From NCBI GenBank assembly GCA_044225505.1, contig JBGAIN010000059.1:1-42175 (forward strand): a stretch of DNA of 42,175 nucleotides, written 5' to 3'. Positions 27,843-42,175 of this stretch are shown piece by piece. This stretch comes from Limisphaerales bacterium. GTDB lineage: Bacteria > Verrucomicrobiota > Verrucomicrobiia > Limisphaerales > SIBE01. A program made the translations under genes and the position numbers. The notes below the pieces were generated by a model. That model had not been told where the DNA came from. It worked only from the letters and a program-made list of their open reading frames with translations, and searched no databases. The stretch's first letter is position 1; each line of letters opens with the position of its first letter.

Positions 27843-29010
27843 GGGGAGTTTCCAGAGCCTGGGCACGTAGCGCGCGCAGGCGGTCGGCCAGCTTGGCGGC
27901 CGTTAAGCGGACCCCCAGGGGTGACCAATGATGGTCCTCACGATAATAAGAGTATTGGCCGCTTTCGATTTCGCGCCCAGCCGTGCGGGAGAACTCCGTG
28001 AGCATGTTTAAGGTCGGAATTCCCTGCGCCTGGAGCGCCGCTTCGAGTTGATTCAAATAAGGCGAAGGTGCAATGTGATCCAGGCCGGGGCCATAGAGCG
28101 TGTACTTGTTCGGGAGCAGCACAACAAACATTTGCAAGTGACGCTCGTTGAGCAGCCGTCGGTAGAGCGCGAAGTAGTCGGCACGCCTTTCCACATATCG
28201 CGCATCGGGAGGCTTGAGCGTCCGTTCGACCTCATCGCGCAGGAAAAGGATGCGCCGGCCGGCAGCATCCTTTCTCTCAACCACTTGCGCGCGATAAGGG
28301 TTGGGCAGGATCGAATCGTTACTCAGCCCTTTGAAGAAGCGGATCGAAAGGATCTCCAGCGGCGAGATGCTCCAGACGGCGCTCAGGAAGCGCTTACCGT
28401 ACTGAAGATCCTCTCGCAGTCGGGCATATCGATCCGACCCGAGAAGCTGTCGCCCGATCGCGTCGGTCCGCCAGGGAAGCCCCTCAAGCTGACTCCGGTC
28501 CCGTTCCGCCTGCTCCCACTCGAGCAGGACGACCATGGGCCGCTGGTGGCCAGCTTTCTGTAGAAGATCATGGATCGGTTCCGGACCCGGCTTGTCCCGA
28601 AAGAAATGTCCGCCGTTGTACATTCGCAGGCCGCTCTCGTGGGTCAAAACGGCCGGCAGCGTCTCTTCGTCGGAAAGGCCCCCACCATAGGCGAACGATG
28701 CGCCCTCATGCAAGAGGTAGTCGAATTGGCTCCCCGGTTCCACGTCCGGCGTGAAACGGAACCCCCATGCATCAGTGCGGAAACGAATTGGGCTGCGCCT
28801 CTCCGTAGGCTCAAGATTTCCGGTGAGGGCAGTTTCACCAACCCAAGGTGCGTACTCCAGGTCAAGATTGGGAATGAATGGAGCATAGCGGCCGGGACGA
28901 CGCGTCGCGACGTGCTCCGGTAGAATATGCAGCCAAGCCACCGGGAGAAAGCGGCCGCCCACATCAAGAACAAACCAGAGAATTAAGAGCCCGACGACCC
29001 GGGACGTCAA
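27829..29010 (-). CDS. AlgX/AlgJ-like SGNH O-acetyltransferase
   Basis: TTG 29010 preceded by GGAGG at 5-nt spacing; N-terminal TM; TDAWGFR, GASFAYG, LLPNKYTLY, YYREDHHWSPLG (DxHW). Confidence 0.78.
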   Translation of the reverse strand: MTSRVVGLLILWFVLDVGGRFLPVAWLHILPEHVATRRPGRYAPFIPNLDLEYAPWVGETALTGNLEPTERRSPIRFRTDAWGFRFTPDVEPGSQFDYLLHEGASFAYGGGLSDEETLPAVLTHESGLRMYNGGHFFRDKPGPEPIHDLLQKAGHQRPMVVLLEWEQAERDRSQLEGLPWRTDAIGRQLLGSDRYARLREDLQYGKRFLSAVWSISPLEILSIRFFKGLSNDSILPNPYRAQVVERKDAAGRRILFLRDEVERTLKPPDARYVERRADYFALYRRLLNERHLQMFVVLLPNKYTLYGPGLDHIAPSPYLNQLEAALQAQGIPTLNMLTEFSRTAGREIESGQYSYYREDHHWSPLGVRLTAAKLADRLRALRAQALETPHALQ

Positions 29011-38251: not shown

Positions 38252-39208
38252 CTAGATCACGATCCGCTCAACTTCGTCGAGGGAGATTTCCTCATCGCGC
38301 CGGTCGTACAGACCCGTCGTTCGCGAGGACTCGTGCCCCGCCATCTGCTGTGCCACTTCCACCCGCCCTCCGTTCTTCAGGTAGGCCGTAATCCCTGTCG
38401 CCCGGAAGCTGTGGTTACAAAGATGGCTCGCGAGTCCGGCGGCGGCGGCCCGTCGCTTCACCATGCGTAATACATCAGTACGATGCAGCGGGAACGTCGT
38501 TACGCCCCCACGGCGGTCACTGGTACGGAAGAGCGGGAGCTTCCCTGCTCCTCGCAAGCCAGCTGCCGCCAAGTATGCGTCGAGATATTCCTCGGCCTTA
38601 TGGTGCGCGTACACCTCGTTGTATTTGCCTCCCTTCTCGAGAAACCGTAGCTTCCAGCGCTTGCCCGCAGGGAAATAGTCGTCTACGCGGAGCCCCACCA
38701 CTGCGGACACACGGGCGAAAGTGTAGATCATTACGCCGATCAAGGCGCGATCGCGTAAACCAATCAGCGTATCCGCCTCAATTGAATCCAAGAGCTGCCG
38801 CGCCTCTTCAGCCGACAGCACAGGAGTCTTGCCGCGGCGAATGACATACTTAGGCCCACGCACCGAACTCGCCGGATTCACCTTCAGCACACCCCCGGTG
38901 ACAAGGTAGTCGAACAGAGTTCGAATTGCGGCCAGGTGCTGCTTAATTGTCGGCTTCGAGAGGCCGCGCTCGGCGGCGAGAGATTCGATGTAGCTGGCGA
39001 TAGCGACCGGATGCAGCCGTTCTAGACTGAAGCCGCGGGCGTCGCACCAGGTGAAAAACGACACCAGGGCACGTGCGTAAGCAGCTCTTGTGTTGGGATT
39101 TCGAATGTTAGCGGCGAAAAACTCCAGGAACCGATAAGAGGCTCGATTCCCTGCCCGGCGGATCAGAGGCGGAAGCTGGGTTGTTGGAGAGATGATCAGA
39201 TCATCCAC
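38252..39208 (-). CDS. Tyrosine recombinase (XerC/D / integrase family); start GTG 39208 preferred, longest ORF begins at ATG 39220
   Basis: SAM-like N-domain (NTRAAY, TIKQHLAAIR); catalytic residues in ARV, EKGGK, HSFR, AGH and TTGLY. Confidence 0.93.
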   Translation of the reverse strand: MDDLIISPTTQLPPLIRRAGNRASYRFLEFFAANIRNPNTRAAYARALVSFFTWCDARGFSLERLHPVAIASYIESLAAERGLSKPTIKQHLAAIRTLFDYLVTGGVLKVNPASSVRGPKYVIRRGKTPVLSAEEARQLLDSIEADTLIGLRDRALIGVMIYTFARVSAVVGLRVDDYFPAGKRWKLRFLEKGGKYNEVYAHHKAEEYLDAYLAAAGLRGAGKLPLFRTSDRRGGVTTFPLHRTDVLRMVKRRAAAAGLASHLCNHSFRATGITAYLKNGGRVEVAQQMAGHESSRTTGLYDRRDEEISLDEVERIVI

Positions 39209-39211
39209 AGA

Positions 39212-39239
39212 ACGTATCATAAAGGACGTTATGATACAG
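39212..39239. other. dif-like tyrosine recombinase core site ACGTATCATAA-AGGACG-TTATGATACAG
   Basis: Perfect 9-bp inverted arms (GTATCATAA/TTATGATAC) around a 6-bp spacer. Shares CATAA-N6-TTATG with E. coli dif and abuts the recombinase gene. Confidence 0.75.
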
Positions 39240-39245
39240 TGTCAA
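39216..39245 (-). promoter_or_regulatory. sigma70-type promoter of the recombinase, TTGACA-N18-TATGAT
   Basis: -35 at 39245-39240 and -10 at 39221-39216, followed 7 nt later by GTG 39208 (leaderless geometry). Confidence 0.65.
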
Positions 39246-39250
39246 TGCAG

Positions 39251-39280
39251 TTGATGCGCGATCGCGCAATAACGTATGGT
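39251..39280 (+). promoter_or_regulatory. Putative promoter TTGATG-N18-TATGGT containing the 14-bp palindrome TGCGCGATCGCGCA (39255-39268)
   Basis: Read directly from the sequence; sits back-to-back with the recombinase promoter. Confidence 0.5.
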
Positions 39281-39299: not shown

Positions 39300-39824
39300 T
39301 TGCCTCGCCCCATCGATTGGTTTCATCGACTTCCCCACATTCTCGACACCCTCGACGCCCCCGGTCACCCCGCGCTCCTCACTAGGCAAGCCATTCAGAC
39401 CCTCTTCGGGGTCGAACGCCGAACCGCCCATTCCCTTCTCCGCCGCTTCGGCGCCGAGCGTCTCGGCAACGCTCTCGTCGTCGACCGCGATCGCCTCGCC
39501 CAGGCCCTGCGCCAGCTCGCCTCGCAAGACGACGTCACCCGTGAACACCGTCGCCATGAACGAGTGCGGGAAACCCTGGCCGAGCGTCGTTCCACCCTGC
39601 GCCTCGCCCGCATCGCCCTCCCCGACGCACCGGCCGTTGAAGCCCTGGCCGATCTGCCACCCTCCATCGAACTCGTCCCGGGTCAACTTCGCATCCGGTT
39701 CGCCGGCGCCGTCGACCTCCTGTCTCAACTGCTCACCCTCTCCCGCGCCATTGGCGAAGACTTCGAACGCTTTGAGGCGCTGTTAAATCAGGACCCCCTC
39801 GCAAGTAACAAGACCCCAAAATAG
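39300..39824 (+). CDS. Hypothetical protein with an HTH-like N-terminus, divergent from the recombinase (start TTG 39300 or ATG 39276)
   Basis: LTRQAIQTLFGVERRTAHSLLRRFG resembles an HTH, followed by an Arg-rich helix; strong coding bias. Confidence 0.65.
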   Translation: MPRPIDWFHRLPHILDTLDAPGHPALLTRQAIQTLFGVERRTAHSLLRRFGAERLGNALVVDRDRLAQALRQLASQDDVTREHRRHERVRETLAERRSTLRLARIALPDAPAVEALADLPPSIELVPGQLRIRFAGAVDLLSQLLTLSRAIGEDFERFEALLNQDPLASNKTPK

Positions 39825-39867
39825 AGCGTCATTCTACAGAATCCTACTATGAGTAGGGTTCCGTTTC

Positions 39868-39896
39868 TTGACACCAACCCTACCCAACTTTAGAAT
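39868..39896 (+). promoter_or_regulatory. sigma70 promoter TTGACA-N17-TAGAAT for the HTH-parA operon
   Basis: Near-consensus hexamers with 17-bp spacing; ATG lies 8 nt after the -10 with no RBS. Confidence 0.75.
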
Positions 39897-39904
39897 CGAG
39901 CAAG

Positions 39905-40090
39905 ATGGTCCGCCAATACCTCACCACTCGTCAGGTGGCTCAGGAGCTCGGCGTGTCGCTCAATACGGTCTACCGTTGGCTCAAAGCCGAGCGCCTCCCC
40001 GAGCCTCTCCGTGATCCTGACAATAACTACCGGCTCTGGACAGTCGAAGACATCGCCCGCATCAAGCTCACCGCCACGGAGCCCGCATGA
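39905..40090 (+). CDS. Small MerR/excisionase-like helix-turn-helix DNA-binding protein
   Basis: YLTTRQVAQELGVSLNTVYRW...PEPLRDPDNNYRLWT. Confidence 0.88.
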   Translation: MVRQYLTTRQVAQELGVSLNTVYRWLKAERLPEPLRDPDNNYRLWTVEDIARIKLTATEPA

Positions 40091-40872
40091 TCCGCCTCGT
40101 CGTCGCCAATCAGCGCGGAGGCGTTGGAAAAACCACCGCCGCCGTCAATTACGCTTGGTATCTGGCCCAGCGCGGACGCCGCACCCTACTGATCGACACC
40201 GACAGTCAGGGCTCGATCGGCGTTATGCTCAACCTCAAGCCGAAGCACTATTTCAGTCATTTCCTGGTCAACAAGTTCCACCTGGACGAGTGCACGGTCC
40301 AGGCTGGGGAGAATTTCCACGTTCTTTGCGGCAACAAAGAAACGGTGCAGGCCGAGAGCGCCTTGGCCGGCGCGGTAGTGCGCGAGCTGACCCTCAAAGT
40401 GCTGCTCGAGCCCTACGAAAAGCAGTACGACGCGGTGATCATCGACGTCTCCCCGTCGATCAACCTGCTCCAGACCTGCGCCATGGTTTACGCCCGTAAC
40501 GTATTGATTCCAGTCAACATGGACCTGTTGAGTCTCAACGGAGCCAATGCCGCTTACGACATGATCCGTCTCCTGAACGACTTGATCCGGGCACAGATCA
40601 CCGCCGTCGGTCTGATGCCCTGCCAAGTCGATCAGCGCCTCTCCGTCACCGCCCTGGTTCAGCAAGGCCTCGAAAAGATGTCGGAAATGTTCCAGATTCC
40701 GATCCTCCCGGCCATTCGCACTGACCAGAACGTCAACAAGGCCTTCCGCGCCCGCCGGCCGCTGCTTGAATACGATCCCGGCTCGAAGGCCGCCCAGGAC
40801 TATCTACTGGCTTTTGAACGAATTACCGCCGCCATGGACGACCATGCCGAAACCCAAAAAGCTTCCGCCTGA
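40087..40872 (+). CDS. parA: ParA/Soj family ATPase
   Basis: ANQRGGVGKTT, LLIDTDSQG, YDAVIIDVSPS, IR, AAQDY; ATGA overlap with the HTH gene. Confidence 0.88.
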   Translation: MIRLVVANQRGGVGKTTAAVNYAWYLAQRGRRTLLIDTDSQGSIGVMLNLKPKHYFSHFLVNKFHLDECTVQAGENFHVLCGNKETVQAESALAGAVVRELTLKVLLEPYEKQYDAVIIDVSPSINLLQTCAMVYARNVLIPVNMDLLSLNGANAAYDMIRLLNDLIRAQITAVGLMPCQVDQRLSVTALVQQGLEKMSEMFQIPILPAIRTDQNVNKAFRARRPLLEYDPGSKAAQDYLLAFERITAAMDDHAETQKASA

Positions 40873-41884
40873 ACCGTTTGACGTCGGCGACTTTCTCCGG
40901 CCCACCGACACCGATCTGCGCAGCGCGCTCAGCACGCTGCTGCACGGCGGCCAGGAAGAACCACCAGCCCCAGTCGAGATAGCGGCCCCTGGCAAGCCAG
41001 AGGCCGGTCCTAAATTAGAGCTCCGGACTCAAACTACGGCCGCCGTAAAGGCGCCTCCCCAGCCTGTATCACGAGCCGACTCTAAACTAGCCGCGGCTCC
41101 TAATCCACACCCCGCTCCTGATTTAACTGCCCCAACTAAATCACGAGCGGCCAGCGCCTCAATCTCGCCAGCTACCTTAGGGACCCCGCTCACTACAACA
41201 CCCCCTCCTGCCTTAGCTCCGGAGCCTAAGAAGCGGCAGTTTGCTGTACGCCCCGCCTTGCTCGTCGAAGACGGTCATTCGCGGGCCGAGCAGCAGGTCT
41301 ACGCGCGCCTGTGGGACAACGCCACACCACACGATGACGCCTCCCGCCTGATCACGCTCGGCTTTGCGTCCATGGGCAAGCTCACCGGTCTGTCCGAGAG
41401 CAACGCCCGCATTAACCTCCGCTCTCTCATTCAGAAGCTCGCTGTCGAAGAACACACCACCTACGACTGCGCCGCCAGCCAAGGCCGCACCTATCGCGTC
41501 TTTGAACCCGCCGAAGTCCTGCGCCGCCGCCACGCCGCCGGCTTACGCTGGGTGATGCGACGCACGCTGGCCGTCGTTTTCGTCGATCCCGAATCCAAGC
41601 TCCCCTTGTTTCATAAGGCCGGCCCCGGTTTACCCTCCGGTCCTAACTTAGTTCCGCCAGTTTTATTGACCCAGGCCATTCGCGGTCATCTCCAGCAGTA
41701 CGGCCCGACGGACCCCGCCACCGTCCAGCGCTTTCTCGCCGCCTGCCAGCACGCCAACCCACAGGCGACTCCTGAGCAAATCGCCGCCGCCATTCACGAT
41801 CAAGCGCTTCTCACCGCCGGCATGCCCGCCGCCGAGCGCCTCGCCTTTCTGCTCGACACTGTCCCCGGACGTCTCGAGCACTAG
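40844..41884 (+). CDS. Hypothetical protein with a Pro/Ala-rich linker and a winged-HTH-like domain (possible replication initiator or centromere-binding protein)
   Basis: ATG 40844 overlaps the end of parA. HSRAEQQVYARLW...LGFASMGKLTGLSESNARINLRSLIQKLAVEE...GRTYRVF fits a wHTH pattern. Confidence 0.6.
   Translation: MPKPKKLPPEPFDVGDFLRPTDTDLRSALSTLLHGGQEEPPAPVEIAAPGKPEAGPKLELRTQTTAAVKAPPQPVSRADSKLAAAPNPHPAPDLTAPTKSRAASASISPATLGTPLTTTPPPALAPEPKKRQFAVRPALLVEDGHSRAEQQVYARLWDNATPHDDASRLITLGFASMGKLTGLSESNARINLRSLIQKLAVEEHTTYDCAASQGRTYRVFEPAEVLRRRHAAGLRWVMRRTLAVVFVDPESKLPLFHKAGPGLPSGPNLVPPVLLTQAIRGHLQQYGPTDPATVQRFLAACQHANPQATPEQIAAAIHDQALLTAGMPAAERLAFLLDTVPGRLEH
41006..41239. repeat. Degenerate tandem array of about 13 x 18-bp units (core CCTAA-N-TTAG) inside the wHTH gene
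   Basis: Units include ggtcctaaattagagctc, gactctaaactagccgcg, gctcctaatccacacccc, gctcctgatttaactgcc, ccaactaaatcacgagcg, ccagctaccttagggacc and cctcctgccttagctccg. Another copy, ggtcctaacttagttccg, is at 41639-41656. Confidence 0.6.
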
Positions 41885-41956: not shown

Positions 41957-42175
41957 ATGCCCGAAATCGACACCCGGCAGTTCGGCACCATCACCTACAC
42001 CTCGGACCGCGTCGTGCACTTCGCCGCCGGTCTGCCCGGCTTCGAAGAATGCCGCGACTTTCTCCTGCACGAAGAGCCCACCATGGCACCCTTCGTTTTT
42101 CTACAAAGCCTCGACGACAGCAATCTCAGCTTTGTCACTCTGCCGGTCGAACGCATCGTTGAGAACTACGAATTG
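41957..42175 (+). CDS. fliW: Flagellar assembly factor FliW, truncated by the window end
   Basis: Hand translation: MPEIDTRQFGTITYTSDRVVHFAAGLPGFEECRDFLL...PFVFLQSLDDSNLSFVTL..., with the FG, GLPGFE and LQS..D..L.F signatures; upstream GGAGG. Confidence 0.88.
   Translation, partial: MPEIDTRQFGTITYTSDRVVHFAAGLPGFEECRDFLLHEEPTMAPFVFLQSLDDSNLSFVTLPVERIVENYEL

Follow-up and report, generated by a model that had tools for sequence, protein, structure and literature searches.

Which enzyme acts on a dif-like palindrome that abuts the start of a tyrosine recombinase gene, and to what end? The question arose from a 42,175-nt stretch of DNA, hereafter the window, in which an initial annotation had proposed a stand-alone dimer-resolution system in the style of XerS or XerH. 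Our comparisons favor a different answer. We consider that the locus is a plasmid multimer-resolution module in which a single recombinase would act on the site and repress its own promoter, and we give this reading a probability of about 0.7.

The core site and its recombinase

The recombinase gene (38252..39208, minus strand, GTG start) encodes a protein of 318 aa, P0001, which matches Pfam PF00589 and PF02899 and belongs to a clade of its own apart from XerC/D. Tyrosine recombinases share the catalytic set R-K-H-R-H/W-Y, to which R166, K192, H266, R269, H292 and Y301 of P0001 presumably correspond by motif position. With SAM-like core-binding and catalytic domains and the full residue set, P0001 fits a simple tyrosine recombinase without an arm-binding domain. 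In a tree of 53 rows, 34 of them picked from the 80 homologous loci described below, a supported clade of 41 stood apart from XerC/D, with long-branch warnings elsewhere in the tree, and the window recombinase grouped with four Bryobacterales proteins with a support of 100/100. Homologues were found on complete plasmids (132 at E ≤ 1e-60) and some in chromosomal islands, one of which (L005) lies among restriction and Gabija-like genes. A search of a phage collection returned 3 records only, at 46%.

The predicted core recombination site, ACGTATCATAA-AGGACG-TTATGATACAG, is a 28-mer at positions 39212-39239, with no strand assigned, in which symmetric arms and an asymmetric 6-bp spacer are laid out as 11-6-11; its perfect 9-bp arms cover 39214-39222 and 39229-39237. 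This layout agreed with the initial annotation, as did the occurrence of a single copy in the window, where no other such palindrome was present. Further copies, for which a genome search had been suggested, were not found at up to 6 mismatches in the 9.04-Mb assembly (342 contigs). The site starts 4 bp from the recombinase GTG, and our promoter scan, which returned 2 sites against 0.5 expected, recovered the predicted sigma-70-like promoter that had been described as running through it into the recombinase (TTGACA-18-TATGAT, 39216..39245, minus strand, 11/12 consensus matches). The −10 box sits in the gene-proximal arm of the core site. The in-frame GTG at 39208 does lie 7 nt past this box, which implies a leaderless message; an alternative recombinase start, an in-frame ATG at 39220, falls inside the core site.

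Taken by itself, the palindrome is ordinary. Bare 9-6-9 palindromes appeared at a chance level of 0.22 per shuffled window and were present in 21% of 200 shuffles, and the whole assembly holds 132 perfect ones, so we rejected the idea that the palindrome is significant on its own. What makes the core site noteworthy is its conservation across homologous loci.

We studied this conservation in 80 loci, the best of 240 homologous stretches confirmed in GTDB genomes. The motif ATAA-N6-TTAT was present within 1.2 kb upstream of the recombinase in 64 of these 80 loci (best 80 of 240), as would be expected if the palindrome were kept upstream of homologous genes. The upstream DNA, 99,007 bp in all, gave 64 matches and the other parts of these loci, 651,032 bp, gave 3, a conservation that exceeds chance. 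Among the 16 of 80 loci that lacked the site (again the best 80 of 240), 3 had almost no upstream DNA and one carried a variant palindrome. The sites come from five phyla (Acidobacteriota, Armatimonadota, Planctomycetota, Verrucomicrobiota and Pseudomonadota). Their inner arm bases are invariant and the asymmetric spacer is conserved, reading AGGAC(G/A) in 52/64 sites of the best 80 of 240 loci, in both orientations relative to the gene (45 versus 19). The outer arm positions covary: among 55 distinct sites, 53 had complementary bases at positions 7 and 22 (G-C in 32, C-G in 21), compared with 28.5 in shuffled sites, a shuffling that ignores kinship. Upstream conservation, covarying arms and a promoter through the site all spoke for the earlier proposal of a symmetric site for one recombinase. 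By comparison, linkage, symmetry and independence from XerCD assign the site to its recombinase; the palindrome is very probably where the adjacent enzyme cuts, and on the sequence evidence we take the site to be genuine and cognate to a single recombinase that is mobile.

The distance between site and gene is variable. In 33 loci the site lay more than 250 bp from the gene, mostly with a passenger gene between them, and it was retained when passengers placed it 250-1100 bp away from the gene. Pfam matches were obtained for 9 of the 33 passenger ORFs scanned, for example to GNAT, CAP12-TIR and VCH_CASS14. Toxin-antitoxin pairs occur next to Tn3 res sites, and we liken to these the variable passengers found between site and recombinase at loci L028-L083, which include CAP12/Pycsar TIR proteins and an integron-cassette protein family. 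We also observed same-spacer sites with no recombinase gene in the adjoining DNA retrieved: a lone one in contig G736:C26 (L213:680-707), with no recombinase within the fetched 1.5 kb, and two in tandem, 47 bp apart, in contig G701:C223 (L214:676-750), with no recombinase in the fetched DNA.

The divergent gene and the second palindrome

Two features of this locus were absent from the initial annotation, a gene divergent from the recombinase and a second palindrome. The gene (39300..39824, plus strand) encodes 174 aa from TTG 39300, the start indicated by homologues, or 182 aa from ATG 39276. Its product has a predicted N-terminal winged-helix domain, a long helix and a small C-terminal domain (model pLDDT 69.6), and belongs to an unnamed family of 1467 clusters at 50% identity, which is present in 92 of 351 Bryobacteraceae genomes and gave no Pfam family in any of 81 members. 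The model resembled Xis (Z 4.9, rmsd 2.2, 51 aligned), BldC (Z 4.8) and Cox only weakly (Z 4.7-4.9), and unrelated EF-hand and Rex chains outscored Xis and BldC (Z 6.1-6.5). Foldseek returned no match to the model at E ≤ 0.001, nor did a metagenome scan with the protein.

The second palindrome, GCGCGATCGCGC + AATAACGT, is a putative accessory or operator element at 39256..39275 (plus strand), 16 bp from the core site and 24 bp before the divergent gene. The motif has the consensus GCACAACTGTGCAGTAACAT and lies about 24 nt before the divergent start. With a matrix trained on 29 loci, the window palindrome scored 19.7, where 7.8 marks the 99th percentile of shuffled sequence. The motif exceeded the shuffled 99th percentile in 43 of 80 further loci, and in 42 of the 66 loci above threshold it was 22-25 bp away from the start of the divergent gene, on its upstream side. 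This element tracks the divergent gene and not the recombinase. Among 97 divergent-gene loci with at least 1 kb upstream, a divergent tyrosine recombinase was present in 55, another arrangement in 2 and none nearby in 40, and the recombinases found beside the gene fall in several distant clades. In the clade of the window recombinase, the full divergent gene occurs in 1/80 loci (best 80 of 240) and the second palindrome at 1/64 sites, which is the sole locus with the divergent gene; most members of this clade do without the second palindrome.

A regular spacing between the two palindromes was first spotted by eye in the training loci. Under strict thresholds, core motif and second palindrome were 16-19 bp apart in 13 of the 17 held-out loci, the others having gaps of 38, 50, 72 and 73 bp. 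Relaxed thresholds, which were set after seeing the data, gave 16-18 bp in 37 of 61 distinct loci, kin among them not being independent and the call at L190 being probably misplaced; the window gap is 16 bp. The 22 gaps outside 14-22 bp fit 18 bp plus whole turns, with a mean cosine of 0.53-0.54 at 10.5-10.8 bp per turn and values near zero at 9, 10, 11.5, 12 and 13 (p about 1e-4 after clustering the proteins at 50-70%). Judged by these spacings, comparison of the loci shows the core site and the second palindrome to be helically phased, which suggests contact with the recombinase complex or bending toward it, and the geometry of two back-to-back promoters could yield the same signal. We consider it quite probable that the divergent protein binds the second palindrome. 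By analogy with TnpT or ArgR/PepA, it may also shape the synapse or steer it to resolution, a suggestion that we put forward tentatively. More doubtful is the extension to the whole family, which would then assist resolution generally on plasmids and islands of Acidobacteria, setting synapse geometry by DNA architecture alone through its phased operator, so that recombinases of several distant clades, each bringing a core site of its own, could be exchanged in one slot. On this view, the spacer common to five phyla would also form a cross-compatible site network that fuses and reshuffles plasmids.

In three genomes (G552, G649 and G433; loci L197-L206), the divergent gene lies in near-identical multi-copy blocks of 1.2-4.5 kb on large chromosomal contigs, with the recombinase present or absent. 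These blocks are possibly a small mobile unit. A Tn3-like transposon as carrier of the gene was rejected, as the multi-copy loci share only those 1.2-4.5 kb; no Tn3 transposase was found in 13 neighboring ORFs from four of them.

A plasmid-like contig and the exchange of gene and site

The window contig (G000:C129) appears to be a piece of a Bryobacteraceae plasmid, 60-70 kb in size, with genes for polysaccharide and flagellin, and it was probably mis-binned or horizontally acquired. Next to the divergent gene lies a plasmid maintenance module made of a small MerR/excisionase-like HTH gene (39905..40090, plus strand; Pfam HTH_17/MerR, TIGR01764), a gene for a ParA-family ATPase (40087..40872, plus strand; Pfam AAA_31), of which copies 98, 95 and 93% identical are found on Bryobacteraceae contigs, and a gene for a probable replication initiator-like winged-helix protein (40766..41884, plus strand). 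The last assignment is a lead only, from a protein with no Pfam match whose Atlas look-alikes (scores 0.92-0.94) carry HTH_36, RP-C and RepA_N. The remainder of the contig is a polysaccharide cluster. The window ParA had no match at E ≤ 1e-80 in 400 genomes of the order of the assembly and turned up, with up to 98% identity, in 9 of the 401 genomes from the family to which a Bryobacter bin belongs; it is absent from PLSDB at E ≤ 1e-30. In 40 metagenome loci with the HTH-parA-Rep-like module (39905-41884 in the window), ParA is 78-93% conserved, and the module may represent an undescribed acidobacterial replicon type. Ahead of it, positions 39839-39896 hold a hairpin and, after it, a TTGACA-17-TAGAAT promoter at 9 nt from the start of the HTH gene, a spacing from which the HTH gene, too, is probably leaderless.

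The composition of the contig is also peculiar. It ranks third of 153 contigs in tetranucleotide deviation, and its skew range (+0.22 to −0.12 versus a median of 0.03) is the widest of the 153 contigs of at least 20 kb, exceeding the genome median five- to sevenfold, a feature that this contig alone shows in the assembly. In the window and in two related contigs (G736:C45 and G530:C13), the skew is a very strong, smooth gradient, independent of gene strand, which at third positions runs from +0.6 to about −0.3/−0.5. On the 60-kb relative it traces a triangle wave, climbing and descending without an abrupt jump at an origin, and the parA/rep-like module lies near the negative extreme; the origin of replication was not placeable from skew.

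These two contigs, of 60.4 kb (G736:C45) and 71.5 kb (G530:C13), share a backbone with the window in permuted order, and G736:C45 matches both window ends, also permuted, at 89-95%. Of its 46 ORFs, 25 were scanned, and all those with a match fell into polysaccharide, flagellin, TPR and recombinase families. There is one site per replicon on G736:C45, G530:C13 and a third replicon, G401:C2. Cargo of a similar kind is found on pPfer1 of Paludibaculum, a complete plasmid of 55 kb that also has a recombinase, an 11-6-11 site and a gene homologous to the divergent one. We rejected the window contig as a closed circle because its ends do not overlap, and found no terminal repeats on the related contigs; circularity of the backbone, of which no complete record was found, is inferred. 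What appeared to be a second ParA on related contigs is actually a Wzc kinase. We further observed that flagellin, fliW and fliD share this plasmid-like replicon with the polysaccharide cluster (window 41957-42175; G736:C45; L095:9291-11712), with a csrA-like ORF, read by eye, beside them in Bryobacteraceae, which makes the replicon a candidate swappable surface-antigen plasmid. A run of 41 N at positions 2780-2820 of the window is a scaffold gap.

Compared with close plasmid relatives, a cassette comprising most of the recombinase gene, the core site and the promoter (38322..39253, no strand) has been replaced in the window. In G736:C45, G530:C13, G691:C22 and L095-L097, the same slot holds a recombinase 37-40% identical to P0001 and a site with different arms. 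The flanking genes of L095 are 81% (ugd) and 92% (parA) identical to those of the window, and DNA likeness between the two ends at 38322 and is back at 39250, the very position at which identity with G736:C45 begins. Only from 39253 onward do contigs in runs X2 (99%) and X4 (97%) resemble the window; in run X1, one strain has the other site type at the same distance. Since a 38-40% identical recombinase with another site occupies the same slot of close relatives, gene and site were swapped together, and the comparison shows an exchange as a unit at the level of sequence. A crossover at the spacer was rejected as the cause, because the break at 39250-39253 lies outside the spacer and the G736 spacer is the same as that of the window but reversed.

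Function of the site and alternative readings

Comparison gave us linkage, symmetry, plasmid-like context, independence from XerCD and exchange as a unit; beyond these, we infer binding, recombination, repression and a purpose in dimer resolution, as follows. The palindrome would be the core, or crossover, site at which the neighboring recombinase works, carried by a Bryobacteraceae plasmid of medium size and probably low copy number. In tyrosine-recombinase chemistry, two monomers bind each site and strands are exchanged across the spacer between direct repeats, which points to dimer resolution: two recombinase monomers would bind the symmetric arms, and the two direct copies present in a plasmid dimer would synapse and exchange strands across the 6-bp spacer to give monomers. 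The bound recombinase would cover its own −10 box and so limit its own level. Such autorepression is plausible for the window recombinase; a good promoter match (at least 10/12) runs through only 9 of the 64 homologous sites. The divergent winged-helix protein, for its part, would bind the second palindrome and, being phased with the core, shape or direct the synapse.

This reading would assign a target site to a widespread uncharacterized recombinase family annotated only as 'integrase' or XerD, and give a testable role to the large unnamed family of the divergent protein (1467 clusters; 92/351 Bryobacteraceae genomes). To our knowledge, how single-enzyme symmetric systems avoid making dimers is understood for few cases, and the plasmid biology of Acidobacteria is little studied; if our reading is true, combining a short phased operator with recombinases that can be exchanged would be a new and compact way to avoid dimer formation. 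A Cre-like enzyme with a 28-bp site is also a candidate genetic tool. What is new here is the phasing of the accessory element, the exchangeability of the recombinase and the sharing of the spacer across phyla.

Several known systems resemble the locus in part. In Cre/loxP of phage P1, one recombinase acts on a symmetric core with an asymmetric spacer; no Cre match to P0001 was found among solved structures at E ≤ 0.001. According to passages of PMC4928290, IntA of Rhizobium etli p42a is a plasmid tyrosine recombinase with a symmetric attA just upstream of its own gene; in the p42a sequence we located this site 108 bp upstream of the integrase gene. The likeness lies in a plasmid-borne single tyrosine recombinase with a symmetric site upstream of its gene; unlike here, attA is laid out as 8-7-8, P0001 is 26% identical to IntA over 236 residues, and a search of the whole p42a record gave no match to the window recombinase at E ≤ 0.001. 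The second att site that IntA has on another replicon has no counterpart in the assembly G000, into which the contig may have been mis-binned, and same-spacer sites do exist in G736 and G701. TnpI/irs of Tn4430 and Tn5401, where excerpts of PMC7157771 describe TnpI binding as modulating its own promoter, shares one recombinase, a symmetric core, an asymmetric spacer and a site upstream of the gene, but there are no direct repeats of the DR1/DR2 type by the window site.

The layout resembles TnpS-rst-TnpT of Tn4651/TnXax1, in which, in the parts consulted of PMC4337579 and PMC7157771, a divergent recombinase and helper flank a core and a second palindrome. In contrast, P0001 is 23% identical to the TnXax1 recombinase, the divergent family and the TnXax1 helper align with an hhalign probability of 0.4%, no Tn3 transposase was found among the 38 window ORFs scanned, and the intergenic region measures 91 bp here and 188-193 bp there. 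For XerCD at cer/psi, passages of PMC5357621 describe a core with accessory DNA bound by ArgR, ArcA and PepA that enforces the dimer-to-monomer direction. This is a model for the phased second palindrome, although the enzymes at cer/psi are those of the host and the accessory DNA there spans about 180 bp, whereas our locus has plasmid-encoded proteins and one short palindrome. On sequence criteria, the module appears to be a member of none of the systems tested; its layout is like that of TnpS-rst-TnpT, and it would work in the manner of IntA/attA, TnpI/irs and Cre/loxP. Four 14-nt core strings of the site were not found in the literature searched, most subscription journals and supplements being outside the search; titles, abstract openings and passages held no description of the recombinase family, which may stand unnamed in the supplements of PMC3414803 or PMC8138268. 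Passages of PMC3414803 state that a resolvase function of such plasmid recombinase families lacks support.

Dimer resolution leaves the cross-phylum conservation of the spacer unexplained. An alternative that we consider unlikely is that the main job of the site is replicon exchange through the shared spacer, by cointegration as in IntA/attA, island integration or module shuffling; the two functions do not exclude each other. The AGGAC(G/A) spacer of 52/64 sites in five phyla also occurs in a sister clade of 38-40% identity. The lone site in G736:C26 and the tandem sites of G701:C223, the varied passengers (GNAT, CAP12-TIR, integron-cassette protein family) and the divergence of relatives within 14 bp of the site are consistent with exchange, and IntA cointegrates plasmids through its symmetric site, as passages of PMC4928290 report. 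Against this reading are the lack of a second copy in this assembly, the break outside the spacer together with the reversed spacer of G736, and the lack, in the loci compared, of paired sites flanking a passenger.

It is very improbable that the palindrome is an operator only, with the recombinase and the divergent protein regulating back-to-back promoters, the phasing reflecting promoter geometry and recombination taking place elsewhere or lost. The near-consensus −10 box covered by the site, and a second palindrome placed before the divergent start like an autoregulatory operator, would suit such a role. Several observations argue against it: the 11-6-11 layout is exact, its inner bases do not vary and its asymmetric spacer is conserved; the catalytic set is intact; the site persists when passengers move it away from the gene; and no alternative candidate site was found in the assembly. 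Slighter still is the chance of a plasmid dif-like site of the pdif/cer type worked by host XerC and XerD: its 11-6-11 geometry and inner TAA/TTA are alike and the hosts have XerC/D-like genes, but the symmetric arms change with the linked recombinase clade, and the site is tied to a mobile gene in five phyla.

The chromosomal reading of the initial annotation, a stand-alone site at the terminus in the style of XerS/XerH, was rejected, given separate XerC-like and XerD-like genes in the assembly (311 and 306 bits, both just under the curated cut-offs), a score of P0001 against the XerS profile of 47 bits versus a cut-off of 267, and a plasmid-like contig. P0001 scored 125 and 114 bits against the XerD and XerC profiles (cut-offs 330 and 335), is 25% identical to each of the XerC-like and XerD-like proteins of the assembly, and matched the XerH structure only at E 5e-5. 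It has a homologue in just 2 of 12 other genomes of the family, and among carriers of the backbone XerD was over the cut-off in 5/5, with a second Xer-like gene in 4/5. Passages of PMC5357621 describe XerS/difSL and XerH/difH as a single recombinase with a site adjoining its gene, as the core site does here. Those systems, of about 355 aa, are chromosomal, FtsK-dependent and replace XerCD, and difSL has an 11-bp center, in contrast to the 318-aa recombinase, 6-bp center, plasmid context and presence of XerCD here. Read as a chromosomal Xer variant, the finding would have no value in that role.

The annotation had held that a separate XerCD with a canonical dif would demote the site. The XerC/D-like genes are there, and no canonical dif was found by likeness to E. 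coli in the fragmented 342-contig assembly, where the best of 678 candidates had 15/22 arm matches; with the Xer genes falling below the cut-offs, and a sign change of skew on the same contig, this is what the chromosomal reading has in its favor. The proximity to a skew inversion, also claimed, stood in that the skew does turn on this contig but not in distance, as the cumulative maximum is at 28,181, 11 kb off; the maximum lies 11-13 kb from the site in both the window and G736:C45. By the KOPS motif definition, KOPS-like octamers did not converge on the core site. The plasmid-like contig and the 11 kb to the skew maximum place the site away from a chromosome terminus, indirectly and within a fragmented assembly.

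Finally, we observed that the 46-kb replicon G401:C2 of strain F-183 (L139-L141) carries a sister-clade recombinase with a site abutting the gene start, and that, no more than 2 kb from this site, its skew changes sign, going from −0.18 to +0.2.
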